Part shown: positions 26,969 to 57,370 of the stretch, piece by piece
How the letters are laid out: each line of letters begins with the position of its first letter
Numbering within the stretch: the first letter of the stretch is position 1
Origin: an uncultured Bacillales bacterium
Lineage (GTDB): Bacteria; Bacillota_I; Bacilli_A; RF39; UBA660
DNA: 64,000 nt
Direction: 5' to 3'
Assembly: GCA_947571655.1 (NCBI GenBank)
Contig: CANOYR010000002.1
Span: forward strand, 44,212 to 108,211
Translations under genes and position numbers: made by a program
The notes under the pieces: generated by a model
The model's input: the letters and a program-made list of their open reading frames with translations, nothing else
The model's database searches: none
Told to the model about the DNA's origin: nothing

Positions 26969-28621
26969 TTATATTTTAAAGCATCCTCCTCCAATAAATT
27001 CTCTTAAAATTGAATCTTCTGGAATACTCTCAGAAGAAATTGGTAAGAAAATTCTTAGAAAGTTAATTAAGCGTAGTGCCTCATTATAGTAAGGAGAGTC
27101 TGGTGGTACAGAATAAAGTAGCGGTTCTACAAAGGTTTTTAATACTCCCAGTTCATAAATCATGGCAGTGTTATATGTATAATCTGCATCATCTTGATAT
27201 GGGAAAATATATTTTTCTTCTCCTAGTCTTACCTTTTTCCATTTTTCTAAGGTATCTTCTACTGTGTTTCCTCTTGTACGATTATCTCTTACAATTCTAC
27301 GTAATAGGCGATTATCTGTTGTTGATACTCTTGTATGATTATCGATATTTAATTCTGTTAGTGCAGATAGGTAAATAGTAATTTTATCTTCTTTTGGTAC
27401 ATGTTCTAACACTTTTGGATTTAAAGCATGAATTCCCTCAATTAGTAAAATATCGTCATCCTCTAAACACATTTGCTCTTTAAATTCTTTTTTTCCTAAA
27501 ATAAAATTGTAGGTTGGAATTTCTGTTTTTTCTCCTGAAATTAATTTTTGAACTGTTTTTTCAAATAGTTTTAAATCAATCGCTTCTAATCGTTCAAAGT
27601 CTGGTTTTCCATCCTCATCTAATGGGGTTTCTTTTCGATCGACAAAGTAATCATCCATAGAAAGCATTTTAGGATTACATCCTAAGCTCTTTAAACAAAA
27701 AACTAGTTTATTAGTCGTCGTTGTTTTTCCAGTGGAAGATGGTCCTGCAAGTAATACTATTTTTGCAGTATTCTTTTTTAAAACAATAGATTTGGCTAGT
27801 TCTAATAATTTCGCATTTTTTACTAATTCATCAATTCGGATTAACTCTTCAATTTTACTTTCTGATACTTTTTGGTTTAAATCGACTACGTTTTCTAAAT
27901 GAAGAAGTTTCGCCCATTCTCTTGACTCTTTAAATAAATTAAAGACTTTTTCACGATGTTCATAGGGCTTGATTCCATTTTCCATATAAATGGTTGGAAA
28001 TCTTAATACAAAACCATTTCTGTGAAGGTAAGTAAGTTCAAAATGAGATAGACATTTTGTATTAATTGGCATTTGACTGTATAAATAGTTATAAAATGGA
28101 CCTAGTTTGTAAAGATTTACATGAGTAGATGGAATATAGTTCATAATATCTTTTTTTACATAATCTCCAGTATTTTCAAAATAACTCATCGCATCAAATC
28201 TTGTAACTGTAACTTTGCTGATTGGTAGGTCATCTTGAACAATTTTTCTCATTTCTAGTTCTAGTCTTTTTAGAGATTCTTCTGAGATTCTACGAGTTGT
28301 TTCAATATATAAACCTTTGTCAATTGAGTGATTCACTTTCACTTCTATTTGATTTCCAAATAGTTTTTTCGCTGCATAAATTACTAAGTAAATTAATCCA
28401 TTCAGATATACTTTATTCGCACCTGAATCCGTTAAATCTAAAAATTCTACTGTACAATTCTTGTGGATTGTTGTGGTTAGTTCTTCATAGATTCCATCAA
28501 TTTTAGCTAAAATAATTTCATATTTAAAATTGTCTTGATATAGTTTTGACAGTTCTTCTAAGGAAGTTCCATTAGTTACTTCCATAATATTTCCATTCAC
28601 AGTTACTTTTACACTGTTCAT
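26969..28621 (-). CDS. TGS-like N-terminal domain fused to uridine kinase/PRK-family P-loop nucleoside kinase domain
   Basis: N-terminal beta-grasp-like segment, then Walker A LLAGPSSTGKTTT and uridine-kinase-like motifs. Start placed at MNSVKV (alternative: 28660). Confidence 0.6.
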   Translation of the reverse strand: MNSVKVTVNGNIMEVTNGTSLEELSKLYQDNFKYEIILAKIDGIYEELTTTIHKNCTVEFLDLTDSGANKVYLNGLIYLVIYAAKKLFGNQIEVKVNHSIDKGLYIETTRRISEESLKRLELEMRKIVQDDLPISKVTVTRFDAMSYFENTGDYVKKDIMNYIPSTHVNLYKLGPFYNYLYSQMPINTKCLSHFELTYLHRNGFVLRFPTIYMENGIKPYEHREKVFNLFKESREWAKLLHLENVVDLNQKVSESKIEELIRIDELVKNAKLLELAKSIVLKKNTAKIVLLAGPSSTGKTTTTNKLVFCLKSLGCNPKMLSMDDYFVDRKETPLDEDGKPDFERLEAIDLKLFEKTVQKLISGEKTEIPTYNFILGKKEFKEQMCLEDDDILLIEGIHALNPKVLEHVPKEDKITIYLSALTELNIDNHTRVSTTDNRLLRRIVRDNRTRGNTVEDTLEKWKKVRLGEEKYIFPYQDDADYTYNTAMIYELGVLKTFVEPLLYSVPPDSPYYNEALRLINFLRIFLPISSESIPEDSILREFIGGGCFKI

Positions 28622-47513: not shown

Positions 47514-47680
47514 TTTTTACCACCTTTCTTGTTTACTCTCACCAATATTTTTATATACAGTATTATAACACTTATTTCGACATTTTTATAGCATTTTTAC
47601 AAAAGTAATCAATGCCTTACAAAAGTAATCATTTGATTTGACATTTTTATAGATGAAAATAGTACATAATTTTTTAATAA

Positions 47681-47697
47681 CTTTTTATAAATTCTTA
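47681..47697. repeat. left copy of candidate att core direct repeat (CTTTTTATAAATTCTTA); overlaps the int stop codon
   Basis: 16/17 identity with 57304..57320. Extended similarity of ~25/28 with flanks AATAACTTTTTATAAATTCTTATATGCC versus AATTATCTTTTTATAAGTTCTTAAATGTC. Confidence 0.45.
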
Positions 47698-49011
47698 TAT
47701 GCCACTATAACTTGGTTTTACAAGGGTTTGTGGCTTTTCTTGTTTTGGAAGATTCTCACATATATTCTCATAATTTCTTATATTTTCGCTTTCAAAAGTA
47801 GTAAAAAAGTAGTAAATTTCACTTTTTAATACTCTTTCCATTTCGATCTTTGCTGATTCTGAATTTACGTGTGCGTAGTAACTTAATGTTATAAGAATAT
47901 TAGAGTGTCCCATAATATATTGTAATGCTTTTGGATTCATTCCTGAATTAGCCATTTTAGTACAGAATGTATGCCTTAGGCTATGAGGTGTTGTTTTATG
48001 TGGTAATGATTCTGTGTGGCATTCATTGTATTTAGAAACTAGACCACGAAATACGTTAGCATAATCTCTTGCTATTCTTGGAAGTCCATTTCGATTTAGA
48101 AATACAAAGTTGCTATATTCGTCAATAACAATAGATTTAATATTCTTCCTATTTGCTATAATTCGTTTTAATGCTTGAAAACACTTATCACTCATAGGTA
48201 CTTTTCTAACTCCTGCATCTGTTTTAGGTGTTTCAATGTAATAACCTTGTTTATTTTTTAATAATTGGTGATCGATATTGATTTCACGATTCGTAAAATC
48301 CAAATCTGTTTCTGTTAATCCACACAATTCAGATGCCCTTAAACCTGTTTCAAGAAATACTATTATATCGTCTACATACTTATAATAGATTTTACTATTT
48401 TTCATAAACTCTAATAAGTTATGTTCTTGTAATGGTGTAAGTGGAACTCTAGACTCTGTATCGTCGTCGATTATGTCCTTAAGTTTAAACTTAAATGGAT
48501 TCTTCCTTATGCAGTCGTCTTCTATCGCCATATAAAATATAGCTTTTAAAGACCTTTGATCGTTCTTAATGACTTGATACGGAGTACCCTTTAATTTCAT
48601 TCGTATAGCCCATTCTTTAGCATCTGACGGCTTTACATTCTCAATAGCACATACTCCAAGTTTGTCTTCTTTTAGGGATTTTAAAAGCCTTTCTCGTCCT
48701 ACTTTTGTATTATCTCGTACATTAGAGTGGATTCTGATATATTTCTCGTAAAGATCACAGACAGTCATTTTTTTACCTGTAGAGTCTATTCCATCGAATA
48801 AGTCTTTTTGTAATGCTTCTTCTTTTTCCCTTAATGATAAATCTTCTCTTTTTCCTTTTGGTAATTTATCTAGTGGTGTAAGCTTCCAAGCATACAAAAA
48901 TTTTGGCTTCCCGAAATTATCAATATATTTATAAGCATATCTTCCGTCTTTTCTTTGGCTCTCTCCATTTTGTAGTATACGTCCTTTTTTATCTCTTCTT
49001 TTTTCTGACAT
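47695..49011 (-). CDS. int: tyrosine site-specific integrase (Tn916 Int-like, with N-terminal arm-binding domain)
   Basis: C-terminal catalytic residues (R...HSLRHTF...ILITLSYY with Tyr). N-terminus KKGRILQNGESQRKDGRYAYKY is typical of the ICE/Tn916 Int N-domain. Start placed at MSEKRRD with RBS AAAGGAG. Confidence 0.85.
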   Translation of the reverse strand: MSEKRRDKKGRILQNGESQRKDGRYAYKYIDNFGKPKFLYAWKLTPLDKLPKGKREDLSLREKEEALQKDLFDGIDSTGKKMTVCDLYEKYIRIHSNVRDNTKVGRERLLKSLKEDKLGVCAIENVKPSDAKEWAIRMKLKGTPYQVIKNDQRSLKAIFYMAIEDDCIRKNPFKFKLKDIIDDDTESRVPLTPLQEHNLLEFMKNSKIYYKYVDDIIVFLETGLRASELCGLTETDLDFTNREINIDHQLLKNKQGYYIETPKTDAGVRKVPMSDKCFQALKRIIANRKNIKSIVIDEYSNFVFLNRNGLPRIARDYANVFRGLVSKYNECHTESLPHKTTPHSLRHTFCTKMANSGMNPKALQYIMGHSNILITLSYYAHVNSESAKIEMERVLKSEIYYFFTTFESENIRNYENICENLPKQEKPQTLVKPSYSGI

Positions 49012-49083
49012 ATATTTTGCTCCTTTCAATTAGAAAGAGCCTTGATATGCAATATCATTATATCACAAACAAGGCTCATTTTT

Positions 49084-49308
49084 CTATATCGCATTTAAAG
49101 AATCTATTATTTTTTCTAATTGCTTTCTTTTTATTTGAATTCGATTCCCATTCATTAGCACCCAACTAGAATTGAGATTTGCTTCTGCTAACTTGCGAAG
49201 TTTATTCTCGCCTATACGAAAATACTTTGATGCCTCTTCAATAGTAAGTGTATATTTTTCACTTATAGGAACATCATTGTTATTTGATCTATAAAATTCT
49301 TTTTGCAT
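49084..49308 (-). CDS. xis: excisionase / small HTH DNA-binding protein (Xis-like)
   Basis: 74 aa immediately upstream of int; MerR-like HTH ([20 protein letters not shown]). Start placed at the second Met for RBS spacing. Confidence 0.65.
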
Positions 49309-49336
49309 TAGAACCATTTCCTTTCATTTTAAAATT

Positions 49337-50335
49337 TTAATCATAATCAGAATTTAAGTAAGAAAATTCTCTGTATTCTTCCATAGTCATTTCTTTTGTT
49401 AAGAATTTGTCATTTTCCTTATAGTGGTAGACTATAAGATTTATTCTTCTTTTTAATTGATCGTAAGTATCACTTTTAAATAAATACATTTGTTTATATA
49501 ATACATCAGGTGGAAATATACTTGTTATATGTACTTCATTCCAAAGGCAAAAACTATTAGTGTAGCGACTATGAATCTGTGTTTTATAGCCCTCTATCAT
49601 AGTCAGAAGTAAGGTATAAGGTAGGCTTTCACTTCGTAGCTCATCCATAAAGAGTATAGGTTCTCCATTATATTTGTCTATAAAACCATTCGTATATTCA
49701 CTTACTCTGTAAATATTTTCTTCTCCATATTCTTCGGCTAATTTTATGTATGTATAACTTTTACCTGTCCCAGCCTTTCCATAATGCCAATATACTCTGA
49801 CATCTCTTTTAGGTGGAGTTTCTTTATATCTTTTTCGGTAGTATGCATCTTTAGTAATTTTTTCAAATTTTCTATATGCAAGTGATATATCAAAAATTTC
49901 ATTCGGAGTTAGACCTTGTTCGATCAATTCTTCGATAGCTTCTATGTCGTTTCGTTTTCCTTGCTTTCCTTGGATATCTCCACAATATTTTATTAAAAGT
50001 ACTTTTTCGCCTTTTTCTTCATATTTCCCACGTTTGTTTATGTAATCGTCTGCCTGTTGCTTATTTCCTTTTGTAGGCTGAATATTCATACCATTAAATA
50101 GCTTTTTGATCCCAGAGAATCTAATGCTTTTCTTATCTTCTAGTACACAATGTAGGTGTTTTAATCCCTTTGCTGAAATGCAATAAGCAACTGCACAGGT
50201 TCTTTGTGGATTATCTTTAGTCCATATTTCGATAACTTTATCTACTATTTCTTCTGGTGTACCCTCGAATCCGTGTAATTCAGGATTATTAAATTCGCAA
50301 AACCAAGATTTACTAGGCTCATTTTTAAATTCCAT
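49337..50335 (-). CDS. rep: replication initiator / relaxase-like Rep with N-terminal HUH endonuclease motifs and C-terminal SF3 helicase
   Basis: Motif I-like FCEFNN, motif II HLHCVL, motif III YINKRGK. SF3 Walker A GKAGTGKS, Walker B ILFMDEL and motif C LWNEVHITS. RBS AAGGAGG. Confidence 0.65.
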   Translation of the reverse strand: MEFKNEPSKSWFCEFNNPELHGFEGTPEEIVDKVIEIWTKDNPQRTCAVAYCISAKGLKHLHCVLEDKKSIRFSGIKKLFNGMNIQPTKGNKQQADDYINKRGKYEEKGEKVLLIKYCGDIQGKQGKRNDIEAIEELIEQGLTPNEIFDISLAYRKFEKITKDAYYRKRYKETPPKRDVRVYWHYGKAGTGKSYTYIKLAEEYGEENIYRVSEYTNGFIDKYNGEPILFMDELRSESLPYTLLLTMIEGYKTQIHSRYTNSFCLWNEVHITSIFPPDVLYKQMYLFKSDTYDQLKRRINLIVYHYKENDKFLTKEMTMEEYREFSYLNSDYD

Positions 50336-50480
50336 AGTGTTTTAACCTCCTTGTATCAACATTAGATACATCGTTTTTTTTTGATTTTTCAACGATTCAT
50401 TAGCAATTTGTATCTGTATCGAAGTCGGGGGCAATGCTAACCCCTCCTTTACGGTGGCTTTCGCTACGCTTCGCCACCGT
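50336..50480. other. structured GC-rich intergenic region between the FtsK-like and Rep genes (candidate oriT / nick site / dso)
   Basis: Hairpins CATCGTT...AACGAT, GGGGG...CCCCTCC and CGGTGGC-N14-GCCACCG (overlapping the 3' end of the upstream ORF). This island stands out in an otherwise ~25% GC element. Confidence 0.4.
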
Positions 50481-51234
50481 CTATTGGTTTTGATAATGCT
50501 TCTATACAAATTTCTTTTATACGTTCCATATCATTAACTTGTCCTATTTTGATAAAGTGTAGATCAGCACTCTGTAATAAAACTGCACCCTCGCCACGAT
50601 TAAATTCTTTCTTTTTTATTTGTTCCAAATGATCGGGCATAAGCATTTCATATATCGATTTCCCAACACCTAAAATTATAACTATTCCATAATTTAATCT
50701 CGATCCAACAGGGAAAGCCACAGCATCAGGTCGCTGACAAGAGCATACAAGCCTTATAGATTTAGACCTACCCATTAAAAGTATTTCGCTAACATCATTC
50801 ATAACTTTTTTAGCCCTTGTTTTATCTTCATTCATAAGAGCAAGTATATTTGCCATATATTCGTCCCATATAAAAGTGATAGGGTGGCGTGTCTTGTCTT
50901 TTCCTGACATTCTATCATTTAACCTATTGTGAACTATTTCCAATAACTCCGTTGTTTGTTTGAAAGAACGATAACGGGGAGTGCCACGCAAACATTCGAA
51001 CATATCGTCAGCTTTGTAATCGGCAAAATAGTATTCCCCTGACGGATCAGCCAAAATTAGCTTTGTTAGTAACCCGAATTCAGCAAATGACTTACCCGAT
51101 CCACTCATTCCCGATAATAGAATATGGGAATTTGTTCGTGGCGAAATATCAACATTTATTTCTTTTTTAATTCCAAAGTTTTTCCAATATTCCAAATCAT
51201 AGCCCAAAGTTAAGGTATTACTAGATTCTGTCAT
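50464..51234 (-). CDS. FtsK/SpoIIIE/TcpA-family DNA translocase ATPase domain protein (coupling-protein-like)
   Basis: Walker A GMSGSGKS and a downstream FtsK-like motor region. It has its own RBS AAAGGAGAA and ATG, overlapping the upstream membrane ORF by 14 nt. Confidence 0.65.
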   Translation of the reverse strand: MTESSNTLTLGYDLEYWKNFGIKKEINVDISPRTNSHILLSGMSGSGKSFAEFGLLTKLILADPSGEYYFADYKADDMFECLRGTPRYRSFKQTTELLEIVHNRLNDRMSGKDKTRHPITFIWDEYMANILALMNEDKTRAKKVMNDVSEILLMGRSKSIRLVCSCQRPDAVAFPVGSRLNYGIVIILGVGKSIYEMLMPDHLEQIKKKEFNRGEGAVLLQSADLHFIKIGQVNDMERIKEICIEALSKPIDGGEA

Positions 51235-51811
51235 CTTTTAATTCTCCTTTTGATTTAATACTTTTCTTTAAAATAAAATCAAAGTATATATATTCTTGAT
51301 CACTTTCTATTTTATCTATAATCTTGATTCCTAATTTTTGTTCTATATCTGTTCTTTTTTCTTCGTATTTAGATTCTGAAAAATCAGGAGAATAAAACTT
51401 AAAAGTGTTAATATTATTGTTAATATTGCATCTTCTTTTAAATTTTGAAACATAAATAGGTACTTTGTGATCTTCTTTTATATTGAGAACATCTTTTACG
51501 TCGTCTTCTATTTTTTTTGCTTTTTTAGGCTTTCCAAACCACGTTATAATACCAAAGGTAAAAATACCAAAAATTAACCAAAATAGAATGTAGACTAATA
51601 ATTTAAAAATATTCTTATAACTACTTGGATCATAAATAAGAATCCAAAGAAGTATTGCAATGATTATATAGAGTGAAAATATTATAAATTTTAGCTTTTT
51701 TGAAAATAGTTCTTTTATACCTTGCTTAAATCTTAATTCATTTACTTTTTGATTTCTTCTTCTGATTTGTCTTTCTTCAAAACTTAATTTATTTTGTACT
51801 TGATTCTTCAT
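51221..51811 (-). CDS. membrane protein (2 TM) likely corresponding to the N-terminal membrane anchor of an FtsK/TcpA-like protein, encoded separately
   Basis: Two TM helices followed by a Lys-rich linker. Combined length with the next ORF (196+256 aa) matches TcpA/Orf21-like proteins. Confidence 0.5.
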   Translation of the reverse strand: MKNQVQNKLSFEERQIRRRNQKVNELRFKQGIKELFSKKLKFIIFSLYIIIAILLWILIYDPSSYKNIFKLLVYILFWLIFGIFTFGIITWFGKPKKAKKIEDDVKDVLNIKEDHKVPIYVSKFKRRCNINNNINTFKFYSPDFSESKYEEKRTDIEQKLGIKIIDKIESDQEYIYFDFILKKSIKSKGELKDDRI

Positions 51812-52118
51812 ACATCTTCTCCTTTAATGCTTCCAACAGATCAGGCGATAAATCTAACTTATCAATAGAATCTGTTAAGCTATATTCTATTTTATCTATA
51901 TATGTAATGCCGATTTCTTCTTTTGCTAAAGCTAACCAAACTTCTCCCGTATCTGAATAAAAAATTTGAGCTATTTCGTTATAATTCAATATGTCATTAT
52001 CGTATATGCTGATAGTGGTATAATATTTATTAAATATAAATATGTAGTAGTCGTCATTTAACGTTATAGTTTTGTTCTTGTTTAGATCAAAAACTTCTTT
52101 TAATTGTAATAGATTCAT
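51789..52118 (-). CDS. hypothetical protein (109 aa)
   Basis: ORF with RBS AAAAGGAGAAG; overlaps the downstream gene by 23 nt; no family recognised. Confidence 0.45.
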   Translation of the reverse strand: MNLLQLKEVFDLNKNKTITLNDDYYIFIFNKYYTTISIYDNDILNYNEIAQIFYSDTGEVWLALAKEEIGITYIDKIEYSLTDSIDKLDLSPDLLEALKEKMYEESSTK

Positions 52119-52197
52119 AATTCTTCTCCTTTTAAAAATTAGTTACAGGTAGGGTGTAGCTATAAACTACACCACCTGTATACACTTTAATTTTGCA

Positions 52198-52488
52198 TTA
52201 TTTTTTGCTTGTTTCGGTAGAGCCAACGAATTCTATAAGACTAACATTTCCGTATCTATCGTAATGAAATTCTTCTACATCTCTGCCTACAAGACTTTTA
52301 ATTTCTAACGTAGTTAATTCTTTGCCAAAAGTTTTTGTTAAGACATTATACTTTACTTTAACTATTGAAACCTTAAGTCCTTCGCTTTTATCGTTATTGC
52401 CGAACTCTTCTGCACAATGAAGATTAACATTATGAAATGGATTATCTTCATATACGCCAATTCTTTCTTCAATACCTACAATTTTCAT
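52198..52488 (-). CDS. hypothetical protein (96 aa)
   Basis: ORF with RBS AAAGGAGAATAAAG; no family recognised. Confidence 0.45.
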   Translation of the reverse strand: MKIVGIEERIGVYEDNPFHNVNLHCAEEFGNNDKSEGLKVSIVKVKYNVLTKTFGKELTTLEIKSLVGRDVEEFHYDRYGNVSLIEFVGSTETSKK

Positions 52489-52585
52489 AGACTTTATTCT
52501 CCTTTCTTTAGATTTTTAAATGTTGTCGAACGATTCTCTCGCTGACACTATAGTTATAGGCGATTGTATATTTGGCTGAAAAATA

Positions 52586-52614
52586 AAGGTGTATAAATGA
52601 TACACCCTTTTTTT
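52586..52614. terminator. bidirectional terminator downstream of the sigma factor gene
   Basis: GGTGTA-TAAATGA-TACACC stem with flanking A/T runs. Confidence 0.6.
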
Positions 52615-52698
52615 ACATACAAAAAAAAGCCGTATTTTACTACAGCTTCTATTAAAATCAATAAATCAAAATACTATGATAAATAATTATTTTTTATT

Positions 52699-53973
52699 TT
52701 AGTTTTTCTTTTGTTCTTGTTTTTTCTTGCTCTTCTTTTTAGCCTGTGGATAAATATTTAAAAAATCTTTTTCTTCAATACCTAATAATTCTAATACTTT
52801 ATTACAATATTCAATAGGATATCCATTTAATTTCTCCAGAACAAAGGCATATGCAAGATGCGTCCTATTATTTTTTTTAAAACTATATCCAGCTGTATCT
52901 AGAAGTGCATTTATAGTATGACTTGATAATTTGAAGTATATACCAAAAGATACCATTGCTTTTATACTTGGTATTGCTCCCTTAGTTTTATAATATTTAA
53001 ACGTCTCTTCACTTAAATTTGTTGCTCTGCAAAACATTGATTCAGTTATATCTTTTTGTTCACAAATATTTTTAAATTGTTCTTCGAAAGTTGGATATCT
53101 TAAATTTATTGCATATTCTTCTTGAAATCTTGTTGATATATCTTTAAAGTTTTTTTCTTCTAATTTTTCATAATCTTCATATTTAGCAATTTTTTCAGTC
53201 TTTGCAGATATATCAATATTTCTCTTTTGTTTTTCAATAATATCTTTCAATAAACGATCTGTTTTTCCATTAGTTATATTATGATATTCGTCAGATTCAT
53301 AAAAATCATTAAGTTTATTGTTAATATTTTCTACTATTTTCTTAATTTTAACTCTATTAACTCCAAGCTTTTTTGCTATATTTGTATCATTCATTTCTTC
53401 TTTGTATTTAAATGTATAAATAAGTTTTTCGTGAGGATATAAAGTTTTAAAAAAAGCCTCTTTTATTAGCTGAATATCTTTTTTGTTTTCATTATCTATT
53501 GTTTGTTCTTCAGGTGTCATAGAGTTATCAGCAATAACATCAGAAAGAGTAGCATCACTTTCACTATCAATAGTACTTTCTAATGAGATATTTTGTTGTG
53601 ATAATGTTTTCAATTCAACTAATTTCTCTAATGGTATTTCTAATCTATCAGCAACCTCTTTATCAGTAGGATCACGTTTTAACTCTTGTGTTAATTCGTT
53701 TTCTACTTTTTTCATTTTATTTATTCGTTTGCTATTATAATTTGAAATACCTTTTGTTTCAGCAATATAATCTTCAATTTCCCATTTGATCCAAGGGGTG
53801 GCAAGTGTAGATATTTTAGTTCCTTTGCTTTCATCAAATTTTTCTGATGCTATCCAAAGACCATATCTTCCATAGTGTAATAAATCTTCAAATGGTACAC
53901 CATTTCCTATATATTTTTTAGCAATACTTTTAACTAACCACTCATTTTCGTTTAATATTCTTTCTTCTTCCAC
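52699..53973 (-). CDS. sigma-70 family RNA polymerase sigma factor with ~180-aa C-terminal extension (possible second HTH)
   Basis: Region 2 (DLLHYGRYGLWIASEKFDESKG), region 4 HTH (TNIAKKLGVNRVKIKK). GTG start with RBS AAGGTGGGA. C-terminal 180 aa not sigma-like. Confidence 0.65.
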   Translation of the reverse strand: MEEERILNENEWLVKSIAKKYIGNGVPFEDLLHYGRYGLWIASEKFDESKGTKISTLATPWIKWEIEDYIAETKGISNYNSKRINKMKKVENELTQELKRDPTDKEVADRLEIPLEKLVELKTLSQQNISLESTIDSESDATLSDVIADNSMTPEEQTIDNENKKDIQLIKEAFFKTLYPHEKLIYTFKYKEEMNDTNIAKKLGVNRVKIKKIVENINNKLNDFYESDEYHNITNGKTDRLLKDIIEKQKRNIDISAKTEKIAKYEDYEKLEEKNFKDISTRFQEEYAINLRYPTFEEQFKNICEQKDITESMFCRATNLSEETFKYYKTKGAIPSIKAMVSFGIYFKLSSHTINALLDTAGYSFKKNNRTHLAYAFVLEKLNGYPIEYCNKVLELLGIEEKDFLNIYPQAKKKSKKKQEQKKN

Positions 53974-54117
53974 ACAAATCCCACCTTATTTAATAATATT
54001 ATTTAACTACACAATATAAAATTTCCAATATAATTATACCATTTTTAGCCTGTTTAATATATAGTAAAACAAAAAATAATTTTGGATCATAAATTATATT
54101 CCAAAATTATTATGTTT

Positions 54118-54396
54118 TTATGCTCTGTTATTTTTATTAAGATATTTTTTATATATAGTATTTATCAACAAGTAGATACCATATAAGATTATTGAATACA
54201 ATAAACCACCGAAAACAATTATACATAAAAACATAGGATAATCATAGTTAATACCTTTTACTACTATTTCTAGTGGATTATTAGGTATTATGAAAGATAG
54301 TATACAAATTACTACAAAACCTATAACACCTAAAATTTTAAATATTTTTTCTAACATAAATTTCAACTCCTTTATTTCAAAAAATAAAAGTAGCAT
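54118..54396 (-). CDS. small membrane protein (92 aa, 3 TM)
   Basis: Hydrophobic ORF between the sigma factor and sortase genes. Confidence 0.4.
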   Translation of the reverse strand: MLLLFFEIKELKFMLEKIFKILGVIGFVVICILSFIIPNNPLEIVVKGINYDYPMFLCIIVFGGLLYSIILYGIYLLINTIYKKYLNKNNRA

Positions 54397-54452
54397 CTAA
54401 AATCTTTTAAAACTTTATAGATACTACTTTTCGTTTTAAATCATTTTATAGA

Positions 54453-55202
54453 TTATTCTAAATTTTCAACTCTTTTTGCGTGTACGACTTTTCTTTTAGA
54501 TGTTCCACCTGTACCCGAGCAAGTGGAAAGTGTAAGTATATTATCACTTGTAGATACTTCTATATCAAACTTTTTATAACTTCTTCTTGTAATGGTATCA
54601 ATAAATTTATTGAAATCACTATCACTTTTAAATGAAGTAGTTATATAATATTCTTCTTTTTCTATAATGTAATAACTAAATATTTGATAAGTCAAAAGTT
54701 CATTATCTTTATTGTATATTTGAATATAGTTATTTTCCTTTTTATCAAAAAATTCATTTTTAAATATATCTTGTAATGATCCAAACATAGTGTCGTCTAA
54801 CATTGAATGACCGAATAATACAACATTTCTATCATTAAAAGATTCATTTCGATAATCCATAAATATTGTTCCTGCCTGATTACTTTCTTTTTCAAAGGAA
54901 CGTTTAAGATAATATGAATTGTCTTTTGTATGTACAATAGGGTTGTTTATTTTATCTTGATTAAATCGTATCCAACCAATAGTATCACTATTGATAGATA
55001 ATAGTTTTTCAAAATCAATTTTAAATACTTCTTTTTCTTCTTCTATATCTATACTAATAACATTTTGGATCAATTCTTTTGTATCATTTTTATTTTTGTT
55101 AGAATCTAATAGGAATAATACAATTTTAGTAGTAGAGAATAGGAACACTACTATAAATAAAATTAGTAGAATATTTTTTGTTTTAAATTTTATTTTTTTC
55201 AT
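54453..55202 (-). CDS. srtB: class B sortase
   Basis: N-terminal TM, catalytic His (NVVLFGHSM), TLSTC active-site Cys motif and conserved Arg (KRKVVHAKR). Confidence 0.75.
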   Translation of the reverse strand: MKKIKFKTKNILLILFIVVFLFSTTKIVLFLLDSNKNKNDTKELIQNVISIDIEEEKEVFKIDFEKLLSINSDTIGWIRFNQDKINNPIVHTKDNSYYLKRSFEKESNQAGTIFMDYRNESFNDRNVVLFGHSMLDDTMFGSLQDIFKNEFFDKKENNYIQIYNKDNELLTYQIFSYYIIEKEEYYITTSFKSDSDFNKFIDTITRRSYKKFDIEVSTSDNILTLSTCSGTGGTSKRKVVHAKRVENLE

Positions 55203-55227
55203 TACTTTAAATAGAAAGAAATAGCAA

Positions 55228-56469
55228 CTAGGCTATTTCCTTTTTCTTCTTACTAACTAGAATATAAGTAATTCCTACTAAAGATCCAAGAGCTAATATA
55301 GAATATAATACAATGTCTATAGAAGAAGTTTGAGCATTGTTTGGTGCTTTATTTACGTTTTCAGTAGTAATAGTTTCATTATCACTTAAAGCTATCATAA
55401 ATGGAGAAAGCTCACTAACTGATATTTCTGCTTTTCCGTCTGTTATTGCTGTTTTAAATATTTCATAAGTATTGTCTTTCTTTTTATGTAATATTTGAAC
55501 TTCCTTACCATTGTAATTACTTCCAAGATTAAATGATATTTTCATATTGTTAGTAGTTGTTCCATAAGCTGTTAATTCATAACAACCTAAAATATTTTTA
55601 AAACCTTTACTTTCTAATTCTTTTGCCATAGTTTTGTAAATTTCGTCATCAGTTTCTAATTTAGCCATATTAACAGGTGTTCCATTTTCTAATGTTGTTC
55701 CATAAGCACCCATATTCATAATATGTTTTATATCATATAGAACATTATTTTTATAGAAGTATAAAATATATCCAACTCCCCAAGGTGTTCCTCCACCTAT
55801 GCCACCAACACCAGTTGTACCTTTAATAGTTATAGAACTATCATTGAATAGTTTATTGAAATTGTATGTATTTTCAGTCCATTTACTAGCATTTTCTTCG
55901 TCACCTATATTATACATTGTAAAAACTGCGTCCGTACCTTCAAAATTTGCAAACTTAATATTATTTACTGCATTTTTAATATATGTTGCATCTTGTTCAC
56001 TATAAGCACTTTCTTTAGCATATTTGATAGTGAATTCTTTTCCATAATTTGATCCGTTTATTCCAATACTTCCATTGTCAATAAATCCAATTCCACCACC
56101 TAAATCACAACCTGTTAAAAATTCAGAAGTGGATACATTAGTTATTCCATTTTGATTAAATATTTCCATAAACTTTTCTTCTAATGCTTTTTGAACAATA
56201 TCTTCTTCATCTGTTTGAAAATTTGTTCTTGTAATATAATTTGCATATTCTGTTTTAGTGATATTTATTTCAATAGTATTTGGAATAATGTTGTTTAATT
56301 CTTCCTCTGTTAAGTCTTTTAAACTTTTTGTTGTAGTAGTTTCTTGTGCTACTTGATTTGTTTGACTTTCGCTAGGTGTAGGTGTAAGTTCTTCTGCATT
56401 AACTGTCATAGTAAAAAACATACTAGATATTGCTAGTGCTGATAATAAAATTTTACTTGTTTTCTTCAT
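55228..56469 (-). CDS. secreted cell-wall-anchored surface protein with noncanonical C-terminal sorting signal (NAQTS + TM + KKKK tail)
   Basis: Signal peptide MKKTSKILLSALAISSMFFTMTVNA. C-terminal NNAQTSS followed by a hydrophobic segment and SKKKKEIA; sits adjacent to the class B sortase. Confidence 0.6.
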   Translation of the reverse strand: MKKTSKILLSALAISSMFFTMTVNAEELTPTPSESQTNQVAQETTTTKSLKDLTEEELNNIIPNTIEINITKTEYANYITRTNFQTDEEDIVQKALEEKFMEIFNQNGITNVSTSEFLTGCDLGGGIGFIDNGSIGINGSNYGKEFTIKYAKESAYSEQDATYIKNAVNNIKFANFEGTDAVFTMYNIGDEENASKWTENTYNFNKLFNDSSITIKGTTGVGGIGGGTPWGVGYILYFYKNNVLYDIKHIMNMGAYGTTLENGTPVNMAKLETDDEIYKTMAKELESKGFKNILGCYELTAYGTTTNNMKISFNLGSNYNGKEVQILHKKKDNTYEIFKTAITDGKAEISVSELSPFMIALSDNETITTENVNKAPNNAQTSSIDIVLYSILALGSLVGITYILVSKKKKEIA

Positions 56470-56548
56470 TTTTTATCTTCCTTTCTAACATATAAAATTT
56501 TTATTTATATAATAAATATTCGTAAAGAATATTATTACCATAAAATAA

Positions 56549-56653
56549 GGAACACTATAAACTTCCTTTGTGTTCCGATACTGCTATTGTTGGATTAACT
56601 GCATACTGCTCCCAACAATATTACAACACCGGTTATAGACACTTCACTAACCG
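56549..56653. other. cluster of three distinct GC-rich stem-loops in the divergent intergenic region between the surface-protein gene and the XRE gene (candidate sso/oriT or small RNA)
   Basis: GGAACAC-N14-GTGTTCC, ATTGTTGG-N18-CCAACAAT and CGGTTA-N12-TAACCG, with no T-runs; locally high GC. Confidence 0.35.
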
Positions 56654-56790
56654 ATAATAAGATTCTACCACTTTTATTTTATATAGTCAACATTTTTACT
56701 GATATTTTATCAGTTTATAATCAATACTAATTTTAGTGATAATAGTTCATAATAAAATAGAAGTTAGTTCTATAAAAAAGGAGTGGTGTT

Positions 56791-57099
56791 ATGAGAGTTA
56801 AACAAACAGAAGAAGACAAAATAATTTTAAAAATAATTGGCAATAATATCAAATTTTATAGAATAAATAATAATTGTTCAAGTGAAAATACAGACGAATA
56901 TGGAAGAATCAGTCAAGAAAAACTAGCCGAATTATCAGGAACTAGTGCATCTATGATCGCCAATTTAGAAGCAACTAATGTTATGCAAACTATGAGCATT
57001 GTTCTTTTGAGAAAAATTGCACTTGCTTTAAATATTCCTTTATATGCTTTCTTTTTAGAAAAGCCAATTAAAAATCCACCAATAAATCCTTTTGAATAA
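56791..57099 (+). CDS. XRE-family HTH transcriptional regulator
   Basis: HTH_3 (KLAELSGTSASMIANLE), 102 aa, RBS GGAGTGG. Confidence 0.7.
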   Translation: MRVKQTEEDKIILKIIGNNIKFYRINNNCSSENTDEYGRISQEKLAELSGTSASMIANLEATNVMQTMSIVLLRKIALALNIPLYAFFLEKPIKNPPINPFE

Positions 57100-57104
57100 A
57101 AAAA

Positions 57105-57137
57105 GAAAACGATTAGTAAATTACTAGTCGTTTTACT
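57105..57137 (+). terminator. terminator downstream of the XRE gene
   Basis: ACGATTAGTAA...TTACTAGTCGT stem followed by TTTACTTT. Confidence 0.5.
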
Positions 57138-57303
57138 TTGCATTATATTTTTAATTGCATACCTAGGCTCTTTGTTAAAAATCTTTATAAAGTAGTAAAT
57201 TAGTAGTAAATTCACTACTGTTTTATTGATTTATGCCTTATAATAAAGGCTTTTTTGGTTATTTATACTTTTTTTAGTCAAAAATAGTGTAATTTTTAAT
57301 TAT

Positions 57304-57320
57304 CTTTTTATAAGTTCTTA
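57304..57320. repeat. right copy of candidate att core direct repeat (CTTTTTATAAGTTCTTA)
   Basis: See the left copy. Preceded inside the element by a tandem AGTAGTAAATT direct repeat (57192..57216), possible arm-type sites. Confidence 0.45.
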
Positions 57321-57370
57321 AATGTCATTATAACCTCGTATAATGTAGTTAAGATATTTTTATTTTAAAA

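Follow-up and report, generated by a model that had tools for sequence, protein, structure and literature searches.

The window analysed here is a stretch of 64,000 nucleotides from an uncultured Bacillales bacterium (assembly GCA_947571655.1, contig CANOYR010000002.1). It carries a 9.6 kb integrative, non-conjugative element, whose gene rep encodes a replication initiator (Rep) related to those of CRESS-DNA viruses. Rep is probably a functional rolling-circle initiator of the pCRESS1 type for this element, acting at a predicted origin, a stem-loop with repeats, just upstream of its own gene. A preliminary description had proposed that this CRESS-virus-like protein, an HUH endonuclease joined to a superfamily 3 (SF3) helicase, is the initiator of the element, and the proposal is strongly supported by Pfam, by the relatives in the PDB, by the folds and by the adjoining, apparently cognate origin. 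The kind of element is already known from gut and oral Firmicutes, and neither the Rep nor its context is new; the identification of the origin, with the covariation within it, is what this analysis adds.

The boundaries first given for rep (49337-50335) are exact. The gene lies on the minus strand as a single unbroken open reading frame (ORF) from ATG to stop, encoding 332 residues, and the plus-strand frame of the same interval is riddled with stops. Conservation was assessed in 61 genome-derived homologues with 39-98% identity and, separately, in 28 database homologues. The motif strings quoted in the preliminary description are all present, and comparison with the homologues identifies them as conserved features, not chance look-alikes. 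The HUH motif II is H60-L-H62 in 61/61 sequences, and motif III is of the YxxK type with a single catalytic tyrosine (Y98-I-N-K101), the Tyr and the Lys being present in every homologue. H60, H62, Y98, K101, G186, G189, G191 and K192 are invariant among the 61, and the catalytic HUH, Tyr, Lys and Walker A residues are conserved likewise in the 28 database sequences. The Walker A (GxxGxGKS) and Walker B (uuuuDE) motifs are conserved across the family, with D/E swaps as the only changes at D231 and E232. In motif I, WFCEFNNP aligns and NNP is conserved; the position of the threonine of CRESS viruses is replaced by E in the window Rep and by V in 48/61 relatives. The motif C asparagine claimed earlier is absent: the canonical position of uTSN reads ITS-I here and V, I or P in the family, never N among the 61 homologues, and the only near-invariant Asn nearby is N260 in RY(T/S)N, upstream of motif C. 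Pairwise dN/dS of rep is 0.07-0.2 within the close clade, and the gene is under purifying selection.

The Pfam model RNA_helicase (PF00910, SF3) matches Rep with 25.7 bits, above its cutoff of 21.5, while Viral_Rep (PF02407) scores 17.6 bits, below its cutoff of 26, and covers residues 55-101 only, the segment from the HUH motif to the Tyr. Domain-based screens would therefore label Rep by PF00910 alone or miss it. There is no Pfam signal for Rep_trans (PF02486), RepL, Gemini_AL1 or a primase-polymerase, and the Tyr is invariant, so that neither of the two findings named in the preliminary description as contrary to it, a non-HUH N-terminus or an unconserved Tyr, was obtained; NCBIfam gives no match, and the only PHROGs match is marginal, to a family of unknown function. 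All significant sequence relatives in the PDB are Reps of CRESS-DNA viruses. The Vientovirus Rep 9pqq is the nearest full-length solved structure by sequence (3.4e-8), 9pqj is matched as well, and the profile of the Rep family reaches porcine circovirus 2 (PCV2) Rep structures 7lar, at 1.6e-11, and 8xms. An AlphaFold (AF2) model built on the family alignment has a pLDDT of 86.8. In Foldseek it matches 9pqq over the full length (E 1.4e-14), the PCV2 ATPase domain with TMt 0.76-0.79 (8xms, TMt 0.78) and the HUH domains of PCV2 and duck circovirus with single-stranded DNA (6wdz/7kij) with TMt 0.6-0.75. The identity of Rep as a two-domain CRESS-type HUH endonuclease and SF3 helicase is thus strongly supported.

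Alignment with a pCRESS-type Rep, suggested in the preliminary description, shows 49% identity across 318 residues (E 3e-107) with CUO23215.1, the sole pCRESS1 member compared, which was taken without gaps from the alignment in the supplement to Kazlauskas et al. 2019 (PMC6668415). The window Rep also has the pCRESS1 motif signature, with YINK rather than YLxH in motif III and ITSI without the motif C Asn; pCRESS1 Reps lack this Asn, and YLxH is found in pCRESS4-8 (PMC6668415). By its pairwise match to one member and by this signature, the Rep belongs to the published pCRESS1 group. Its family comprises at least 665 clusters, of which all the named ones among the matches listed are called “hypothetical protein”, and occurs in at least 178 species-level genomes, mainly of Oscillospiraceae and Lachnospiraceae, also of Clostridium and Streptococcus suis/plurextorum. 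Close family members are also binned outside the Firmicutes, in Tannerellaceae (locus L020; L numbers denote loci of the comparison), Coriobacteriia (L025) and Gastranaerophilales (L069), and one is found in a record titled Candidatus Methanoflexus mossambicus (L010), a protein (P0006) of the family being named Methanobrevibacter sp. These archaeal and non-Firmicute bins reflect either mis-binned mobile-element contigs or a very broad host range.

Such Reps had been called rare in chromosomally integrated bacterial elements. The claim is unsupported, because 97.5% of the pCRESS Reps outside pCRESS7 and pCRESS9, that is of pCRESS1-6 and pCRESS8, sit in such elements (PMC6668415), and because the architecture is common in streptococcal integrative and mobilizable elements (IMEs); it is in integrated elements that these Reps chiefly occur (PMC6668415; PMC5357655). 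Most streptococcal IMEs encode “relaxases” of the rolling-circle replication (RCR) initiator type, including Viral_Rep and Rep_2 + RNA_helicase classes, and their predominant compact gene order is TcpA, RCR-type relaxase, excisionase, tyrosine integrase (PMC5357655). FtsK-like ATPases and SSB-like (single-stranded DNA-binding) proteins are common to the pCRESS1-3, -5 and -8 elements, no structural proteins have been found in any pCRESS element, and the elements have been interpreted as plasmids (PMC6668415).

The origin is best seen in the relatives, which carry at the same position a perfect G+C-rich stem, typically GAAGTNGGGG/CCCCNACTTC, with the loop (T/C)TAGTATTAC. By sequence, this loop is the nonanucleotide of circovirus and nanovirus origins. 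An exact match to AGTATTAC is present on the coding strand, no more than 350 nt upstream of rep, in 44/75 loci, against ~0.4 expected, at offsets that cluster from -90 to -250; in most other loci this hairpin is found immediately downstream of rep, at a distance of a few kb, or with a loop altered at one or two positions. Between the hairpin and rep, most relatives have short, lineage-specific repeats of the pattern G-N-N-ACA, and the mean count of the top 6-mer there is 4.5 versus 2.2 in control windows. In L037, L054, L061, L064 and L066 the origin hairpin is placed at ~+1050, just downstream of rep. L028, L030, L033 and L055 have two hairpins each, and in some loci a pair of complete TAGTATTAC stem-loops, with repeats, is separated by several kb. 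Such paired origins could be the limits of a replicated or transferred segment, or a sign of tandem elements.

The stems covary. In 63 distinct hairpins, positions 2-10 of the stem each show 3-4 Watson-Crick pair types, and pairing is 95% in register compared with ~40% when the partner is slid by one. The first six pairs were the selection criterion and are not evidence; the informative features are pairs 7-10 and the variety of pair types. The count was made by script outward from the loop, as the MAFFT alignment A3 put two loop-length classes out of register. Loop positions 4 and 8 covary as well, being T:A in 56 hairpins, C:G in 5, A:T in 1 and mismatched in 1; in every hairpin with a base other than A at position 8, position 4 carries the complementary base. 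In co-crystals of the Reps from PCV2 and from wheat dwarf virus (WDV) with single-stranded DNA, the bound nonanucleotide takes the shape of a U, bent by Watson-Crick pairing of T-4 with A+1, and cleavage falls between -1 and +1 (PMC7826260); positions 4 and 8 correspond to this T-4 and A+1.

The window element has, in place of the family loop consensus TAGTATTAC, the variant TAGCATTGC, which differs at two positions. It is of the C:G form, which occurs in four separate places of the Rep tree (the window clade, L036, L063 and L068), and in the latter three it sits on perfect 10-bp stems. The window loop is best read, from these comparisons, as a compensated, functional variant, because the C:G form recurs with perfect stems elsewhere. 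Within the window clade, a compensatory stem change from GGGG/CCCC to GTGG/CCAC is found in L010 and L089. Between the stem-loop and rep lie four copies of GATACA in 95 nt, one of them inverted, a count reached by 0/200 control windows; two copies abut the stem, and the one nearest rep adjoins its ribosome-binding site GGAGG (50350-50346). The origin of porcine circoviruses also has hexamer repeats by the 3' arm of its stem-loop. The case for the window origin is comparative and rests on homology with the stem-loops of the relatives.

A second, perfect hairpin lies directly 5' of the predicted origin (Table 1). The clade retains it, L005-7 showing a compensatory change (GATGGC/GCCATC), and it has no T-run, so it is not a terminator. 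No promoter or terminator was called between the origin and rep, and hence no autoregulation is claimed. The pattern TAGYATTRC occurs 9 times in the whole window against 1.9 expected from shuffles (0/100 shuffles reach 9), and the only copy in an origin context is that at 50431-50439, the others lacking a G+C-rich stem and repeats. The excess elsewhere may be due to chance or to codon or composition bias. The copy at 27751 was rejected as an origin: it has a 6-bp stem, but lies inside a uridine-kinase-family gene. No nonanucleotide or stem-loop for pCRESS elements was found in the text or supplements of PMC6668415, in PMC8780604 or in wider literature searches, whose coverage of the literature was incomplete, so that an earlier description may exist.

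Table 1. Features of the integrative element, its rep gene and its predicted origin (window coordinates)
Feature	Position	Strand	Description
Whole integrative element	47656..57274	.	9,619 bp; left terminus AAAATAGTACATAATTTTTTAATAAC, right terminus ...GGTTATTTATACTTTTTT
int	47695..49011	-	Tn916-type tyrosine integrase, 438 aa, start MSEKRR; PF02920 2.3e-32, PF00589 1.1e-34; gene call in L001
xis	49084..49308	-	Tn916-type excisionase, 74 aa; PF09035 1.7e-16; PHROG excisionase 3.6e-28
rep	49337..50335	-	pCRESS1 type; HUH endonuclease ~residues 1-120, linker/oligomerisation helices, SF3 helicase ~175-310
Rep motif strings (residues)			WFCEFNNP 11-18; HLHCVLED 60-67; YINKRGK 98-104; GKAGTGKS 186-193; ILFMDELR 227-234
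Iteron-like repeats	50352..50420	-	GATACA 50420-50415 and 50414-50409 (abut stem); TGTATC inverted 50370-50365; GATACA 50357-50352
Predicted origin stem-loop	50421..50450	-	AAAGGAGGGG / loop TTAGCATTGC / CCCCGACTTC; 95 nt upstream of rep start
Nonanucleotide TAGCATTGC	50431-50439	-	Loop of the window stem-loop
Predicted nick TAGCATT|GC	between 50433 and 50432	-	Predicted from PCV2/WDV Rep-ssDNA structures (PMC7826260)
G+C-rich hairpin	50451..50480	-	ACGGTGGC-(14 nt)-GCCACCGT; perfect 8 bp; spans ATPase stop codon, directly 5' of origin
FtsK/HerA/TcpA-like P-loop ATPase	50464..51234	-	256 aa, soluble; candidate coupling protein or DNA translocase
Membrane protein	51221..51811	-	196 aa; 14-nt overlap with ATPase gene; next to ATPase in L005-8, L089, L093
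Small core protein	52198..52488	-	96 aa; model beta1-3/alpha/beta4-5, pLDDT 81
Sigma-70-like regulator	52699..53973	-	424 aa, C-terminal extension; Sigma70_r2, r3; PHROG sigma factor 2.4e-42
Sortase (cargo)	54453-55202	-	PF04203 9e-15
Secreted/surface protein (cargo)	55228-56469	-	413 aa; hydrophobic segment then KKKK at end
Cro/CI-type HTH regulator	56791..57099	+	102 aa, divergent, far end; HTH_19/HTH_3, PHROG regulators; in all four other copies

The ends of the element were mapped from five independent insertions, that of the window and those in four long contigs (L001-L004), where the same gene block stands amid wholly different neighbours. The four are 99.9% identical to the window from ~47,640 to 57,300, and identity ends at the element borders; to the base, the sequence shared by the copies extends from 47,656 (AAAATAGTAC...) to 57,274 (...ACTTTTTT). 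The element has thus been recently mobile, with near-identical copies at four other chromosomal sites, and an identical Rep is recorded in 136 blocks of the assembly collection; identical elements in differing genomic backgrounds imply horizontal spread. Each insertion is flanked by a T-run and an A-run with a variable coupling sequence of 5-7 bp (ATAATT on both sides in L002, CATAC on both sides in L004), which is the behaviour expected of the encoded Tn916-type Int and Xis. No direct att repeat longer than 12 bp was found between the int-proximal flank and the 51.8-58.4 kb region. In the window, the insertion interrupts a prfB-YitT ... ftsEX neighbourhood, and the genes in the remainder of the window have housekeeping functions (SecY, glycolysis genes, UvrAB, FtsEX).

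Just beyond the right end, the 54 bp at 57281-57334 are 82% identical to the left terminal 56 bp of the element (AAAATAGT..TATAAC), and are either the isolated remnant of one end of a related element or a target mimicking the element end. This similarity makes BLAST matches to other copies overrun the true junction by a few bases. In the host DNA between the start of ftsE and the left end, TTACAAAAGTAATCA occurs twice as a direct repeat (47597-47611 and 47617-47631, 5 bp apart), which may be a regulatory site of the host, separated by the insertion from the sequences upstream of it.

Read along the minus strand, the gene order is the divergent helix-turn-helix (HTH) regulator, the surface protein, the sortase, a small membrane protein, the Sigma-70-like protein, the 96-aa protein, a 109-aa protein, the 196-aa membrane protein, the 256-aa ATPase, Rep, Xis and Int. 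The preliminary description had likened the position of rep to that in Tn916. The local placement agrees, as rep lies downstream of an FtsK/TcpA-like ATPase gene in the way orf20 follows orf21, but the overall order is that of a compact IME and not of Tn916. Scans of all element ORFs revealed no VirB4-, VirB6- or VirB8-like genes of a type IV secretion system (T4SS) and, in Pfam and PHROGs, no phage structural genes. The surface protein ends in …PNNAQTSS, a hydrophobic stretch and KKKK, a tail that looks, from its sequence, like a non-LPXTG sorting signal. The sortase and surface-protein pair is not found in related elements with other recombinases.

The ATPase encoded upstream of rep matches the FtsK/SpoIIIE-like PHROG (2.7e-10), and its homologues carry PF01580/PF01935. 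A single-sequence PDB search gave nothing significant; with the family profile, EccC5 (2e-5), HerA and the “DNA translocase coupling protein” 6o1w-z (1.2e-4) are matched. The last of these we take to be TcpA of pCW3. The protein of the window has no transmembrane (TM) domain, and pCW3 TcpA was studied, according to the citation of Traore 2023 in PMC12857230, as TcpA102-530 (“6OZ1”) after removal of the N-terminal TM region. The 196-aa protein is possibly a membrane anchor for the ATPase. The 96-aa protein has no family match; its model gives a best Foldseek E of 0.18, which is not significant, with SSBs and the Ff gene V protein at the top, and it may possibly be an OB-fold binder of single-stranded DNA. 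That would be in keeping with the SSB-like proteins that have been described from pCRESS elements.

These four genes (for the ~95-aa protein, the TM protein, the ATPase and Rep) form a core that is kept while the recombinase is swapped: it is found with the Tn916-type Int, with a serine recombinase (L005-8) and with a phage-type tyrosine integrase (L093). More distant relatives, which are abundant, consist of minimal HTH-Rep-Int elements and lack the ATPase gene. Gene order around rep varies widely between subfamilies, and ATPase orthologues are not inferable from the upstream ORFs. One minimal HTH-Rep-Int locus, the 4,250-bp L094, starts and ends with the same 15 nt, GATTCGAACTCCGGA, which resembles a tRNA T-arm. 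This suggests att repeats at a tRNA gene as the boundaries of the element, in contrast to the Tn916-style targeting seen in the window, and not a circle.

In the mechanism that we favour, Int and Xis would excise the element as a circle, and Rep would bind the GATACA repeats flanking the stem-loop 95 nt upstream of its own start codon. The HUH domain, with a metal on H60/H62, would cut the loop at TAGCATT|GC on the rep-sense strand through Y98, and Rep is expected to cut DNA carrying TTAGCATTGC or TTAGTATTAC. Rep would remain attached to the 5' end, a hexamer of the SF3 helicase would unwind the DNA and a host polymerase would extend the 3' OH, with rolling-circle copying of the excised circle as the outcome. 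The displaced strand is probably a transfer substrate as well, given that the origin is situated between the genes of the ATPase and the initiator and that the core moves as one unit; the TcpA-like ATPase, with its membrane partner, would probably pass the strand on to the mating channel of a conjugative element resident in the same cell, as in IME-type mobilisation. A single initiator performs both transfer and plasmid-like replication in Tn916 and ICEBs1 (PMC5704250). The exact nick and the order of these events are predictions, and the output may serve maintenance, transfer or both.

Several points weigh against this mechanism. The support for it comes from sequence and model comparison. 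The sensor-1 Asn of motif C is absent, so that the ATPase competence of the helicase is assumed from family-wide conservation. The stem of the window is weak, with 4 bp, a 2x2 internal loop and 3 bp, and the fold of the stem-loop alone is not significant (z = -1.7). The ATPase gene is missing from many relatives, and the link to transfer is therefore not obligatory. No helper conjugative element is present within the window, L089, L093, L095 and L096 show no terminal overlap, and circular contigs were not detected. Among IMEs, it is for Rep_trans proteins only that experiments have established a relaxase role (PMC7563843).

The first alternative is that Rep serves replication only, the element being an “integrated plasmid” as understood by Kazlauskas et al., in which Rep maintains or amplifies the circle and is no conjugative relaxase, and the ATPase acts in segregation or otherwise. 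It is a serious rival, because so many relatives, the abundant minimal HTH-Rep-Int elements, do without any ATPase. It also agrees with the full replication-origin layout of stem-loop, nonanucleotide and iterons, with the helicase that Rep itself possesses, which IME relaxases do not need, and with the reading of such elements as plasmids (PMC6668415). We nevertheless hold it to be unlikely, since the core of Rep, ATPase, TM protein and small protein has stayed together in combination with three recombination modules, the profile of the ATPase reaches the structure of the TcpA coupling protein, and identical elements in many backgrounds point to horizontal spread. In addition, the origin is located between the ATPase and initiator genes, where oriT is found in integrative and conjugative elements (ICEs) of the Tn916 superfamily (PMC7563843), and the initiator of Tn916 and ICEBs1 does both jobs (PMC5704250).

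Improbable, in our estimate, is the possibility that the four-gene core (the OB-like protein, the membrane protein, the ATPase and Rep with its TAGTATTAC origin) constitutes a T4SS-independent apparatus that both replicates and exports the DNA of the element. If true, widespread gut elements would be self-transmissible and would offer a living model of the plasmid stage ancestral to CRESS-DNA viruses. In favour of transfer by such a minimal DNA-export device, similar to TraB-type conjugation in Streptomyces and with the sortase-anchored protein aiding contact, neither the element nor the window has mating pair formation (MPF) genes, and the element has a sortase and a surface protein; the structure of TcpA, as Traore 2023 is cited in PMC12857230, is nearer to FtsK than to VirD4, and the ATPase has a weak NCBIfam match to plasmid TraB (3e-5). 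This match is far under the cutoff (22.7 versus 800 bits), the ATPase is a short protein without TM segments, TraB systems move double-stranded DNA and use no nicking Rep, the sortase cargo is missing from related elements, and Firmicutes offer no precedent. Self-sufficient transfer is judged quite improbable.

We consider it very improbable that the element is a decaying relic, with a degenerate origin in the window lineage, an inactive Rep and movement by Int/Xis or passively. The two loop positions off consensus, the mismatched stem pairs 5-6 and the z-score of the fold (-1.7) might suggest decay. The loop changes are complementary to each other (C4:G8) and recur with the perfect 10-bp stems of L036, L063 and L068, the remaining stem has compensatory changes in L010/L089, the iterons are intact and dN/dS of rep is low (~0.08). 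An integrated single-stranded DNA virus or phage satellite, in which Rep would serve genome replication and packaging, is suggested by the virus-type Rep and origin and is rejected as scarcely credible, since no capsid, scaffold or other structural proteins were found by Pfam and PHROGs among all element ORFs or, in PMC6668415, in any pCRESS element.

The preferred reading, rolling-circle initiation by Rep at the adjoining origin, brings the circovirus/nanovirus-type origin, with its nonanucleotide TAGTATTAC, iterons and intramolecular 4:8 pair, to integrated elements of bacteria. The cis-acting site makes the Rep system testable, with a precise predicted nick in a tractable bacterial system, and the natural compensated variants (C:G, A:T) support the 4:8 pair seen by crystallography. 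The plasmid-to-CRESS-virus scenario is strengthened from the side of the DNA site, independently of the protein. A G+C-rich stem with TAGTATTAC near a “hypothetical protein” that has PF00910 only could serve as an annotation signature for elements that pipelines leave unnamed. The question whether the RCR-type initiators of this class in IMEs are relaxases, replicases or both is also sharpened.

Among the closest known systems are the elements of pCRESS1 (PMC6668415). In both, the Rep combines HUH and SF3 domains, has YxxK, no motif C Asn and a Walker B motif with Glu, and the elements are site-integrated, with an FtsK-like ATPase and no virion genes. The difference is that the window element uses a Tn916-type Int/Xis and AT-rich, non-site-specific targets, while those of pCRESS1 are described from tRNA or rpsI sites, and in its sortase and surface-protein cargo; no mention of the origin was found in the text or supplements of PMC6668415.

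The streptococcal IMEs of the Rel_PF02407, Rel_PHA00330 and Rel_PF01719-PF00910 classes (PMC5357655; PMC5704250) share with it the compact order of TcpA-like ATPase, relaxase candidate, excisionase and tyrosine integrase, the possession of their own integrase and excisionase, defined ends, the lack of MPF genes and recombinase swapping, and the Rep family itself is present in S. suis and S. plurextorum. Unlike these IMEs, the window element resides in a host that is not a streptococcus, its ATPase is short and has no membrane domain, and its Viral_Rep match is sub-threshold.

Tn916 and ICEBs1 also place the initiator (Orf20 and NicK, MobT, Rep_trans) just downstream of an FtsK/TcpA-like ATPase (Orf21 and ConQ), with the nick site between the two, and the Int (PF02920 + PF00589), the Xis (PF09035), the AT-rich targets and the variable coupling sequences of the window element are those of Tn916. 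However, the window initiator is of the HUH + SF3 type and not Rep_trans (no PF02486 match), the conjugation module is missing and Rep adjoins xis-int.

Among the viruses, PCV2 (7lar, 8xms, 6wdz; Tompkins 2021, PMC7826260) is similar in both domain folds and in the HUH/YxxK chemistry. Its origin likewise is a stem-loop upstream of rep with the nonanucleotide on the rep-sense strand, TAGTATTAC as in most relatives of the element, paired 4:8 positions and repeats that abut the 3' arm. The PCV2 Rep is only ~20% identical, has HLQ instead of HLH, and possesses the motif I Thr and motif C Asn that are missing here; the window element is a 9.6 kb integrating double-stranded DNA element without a capsid gene, and its loop is the C:G variant. 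The Rep of Vientovirus (Redondoviridae; 9pqq/9pqj) is the closest solved full-length structure by both sequence and fold, and its aligned motif C also has no Asn (VTSP), although it is the protein of a eukaryote-associated CRESS virus with ~17% identity.

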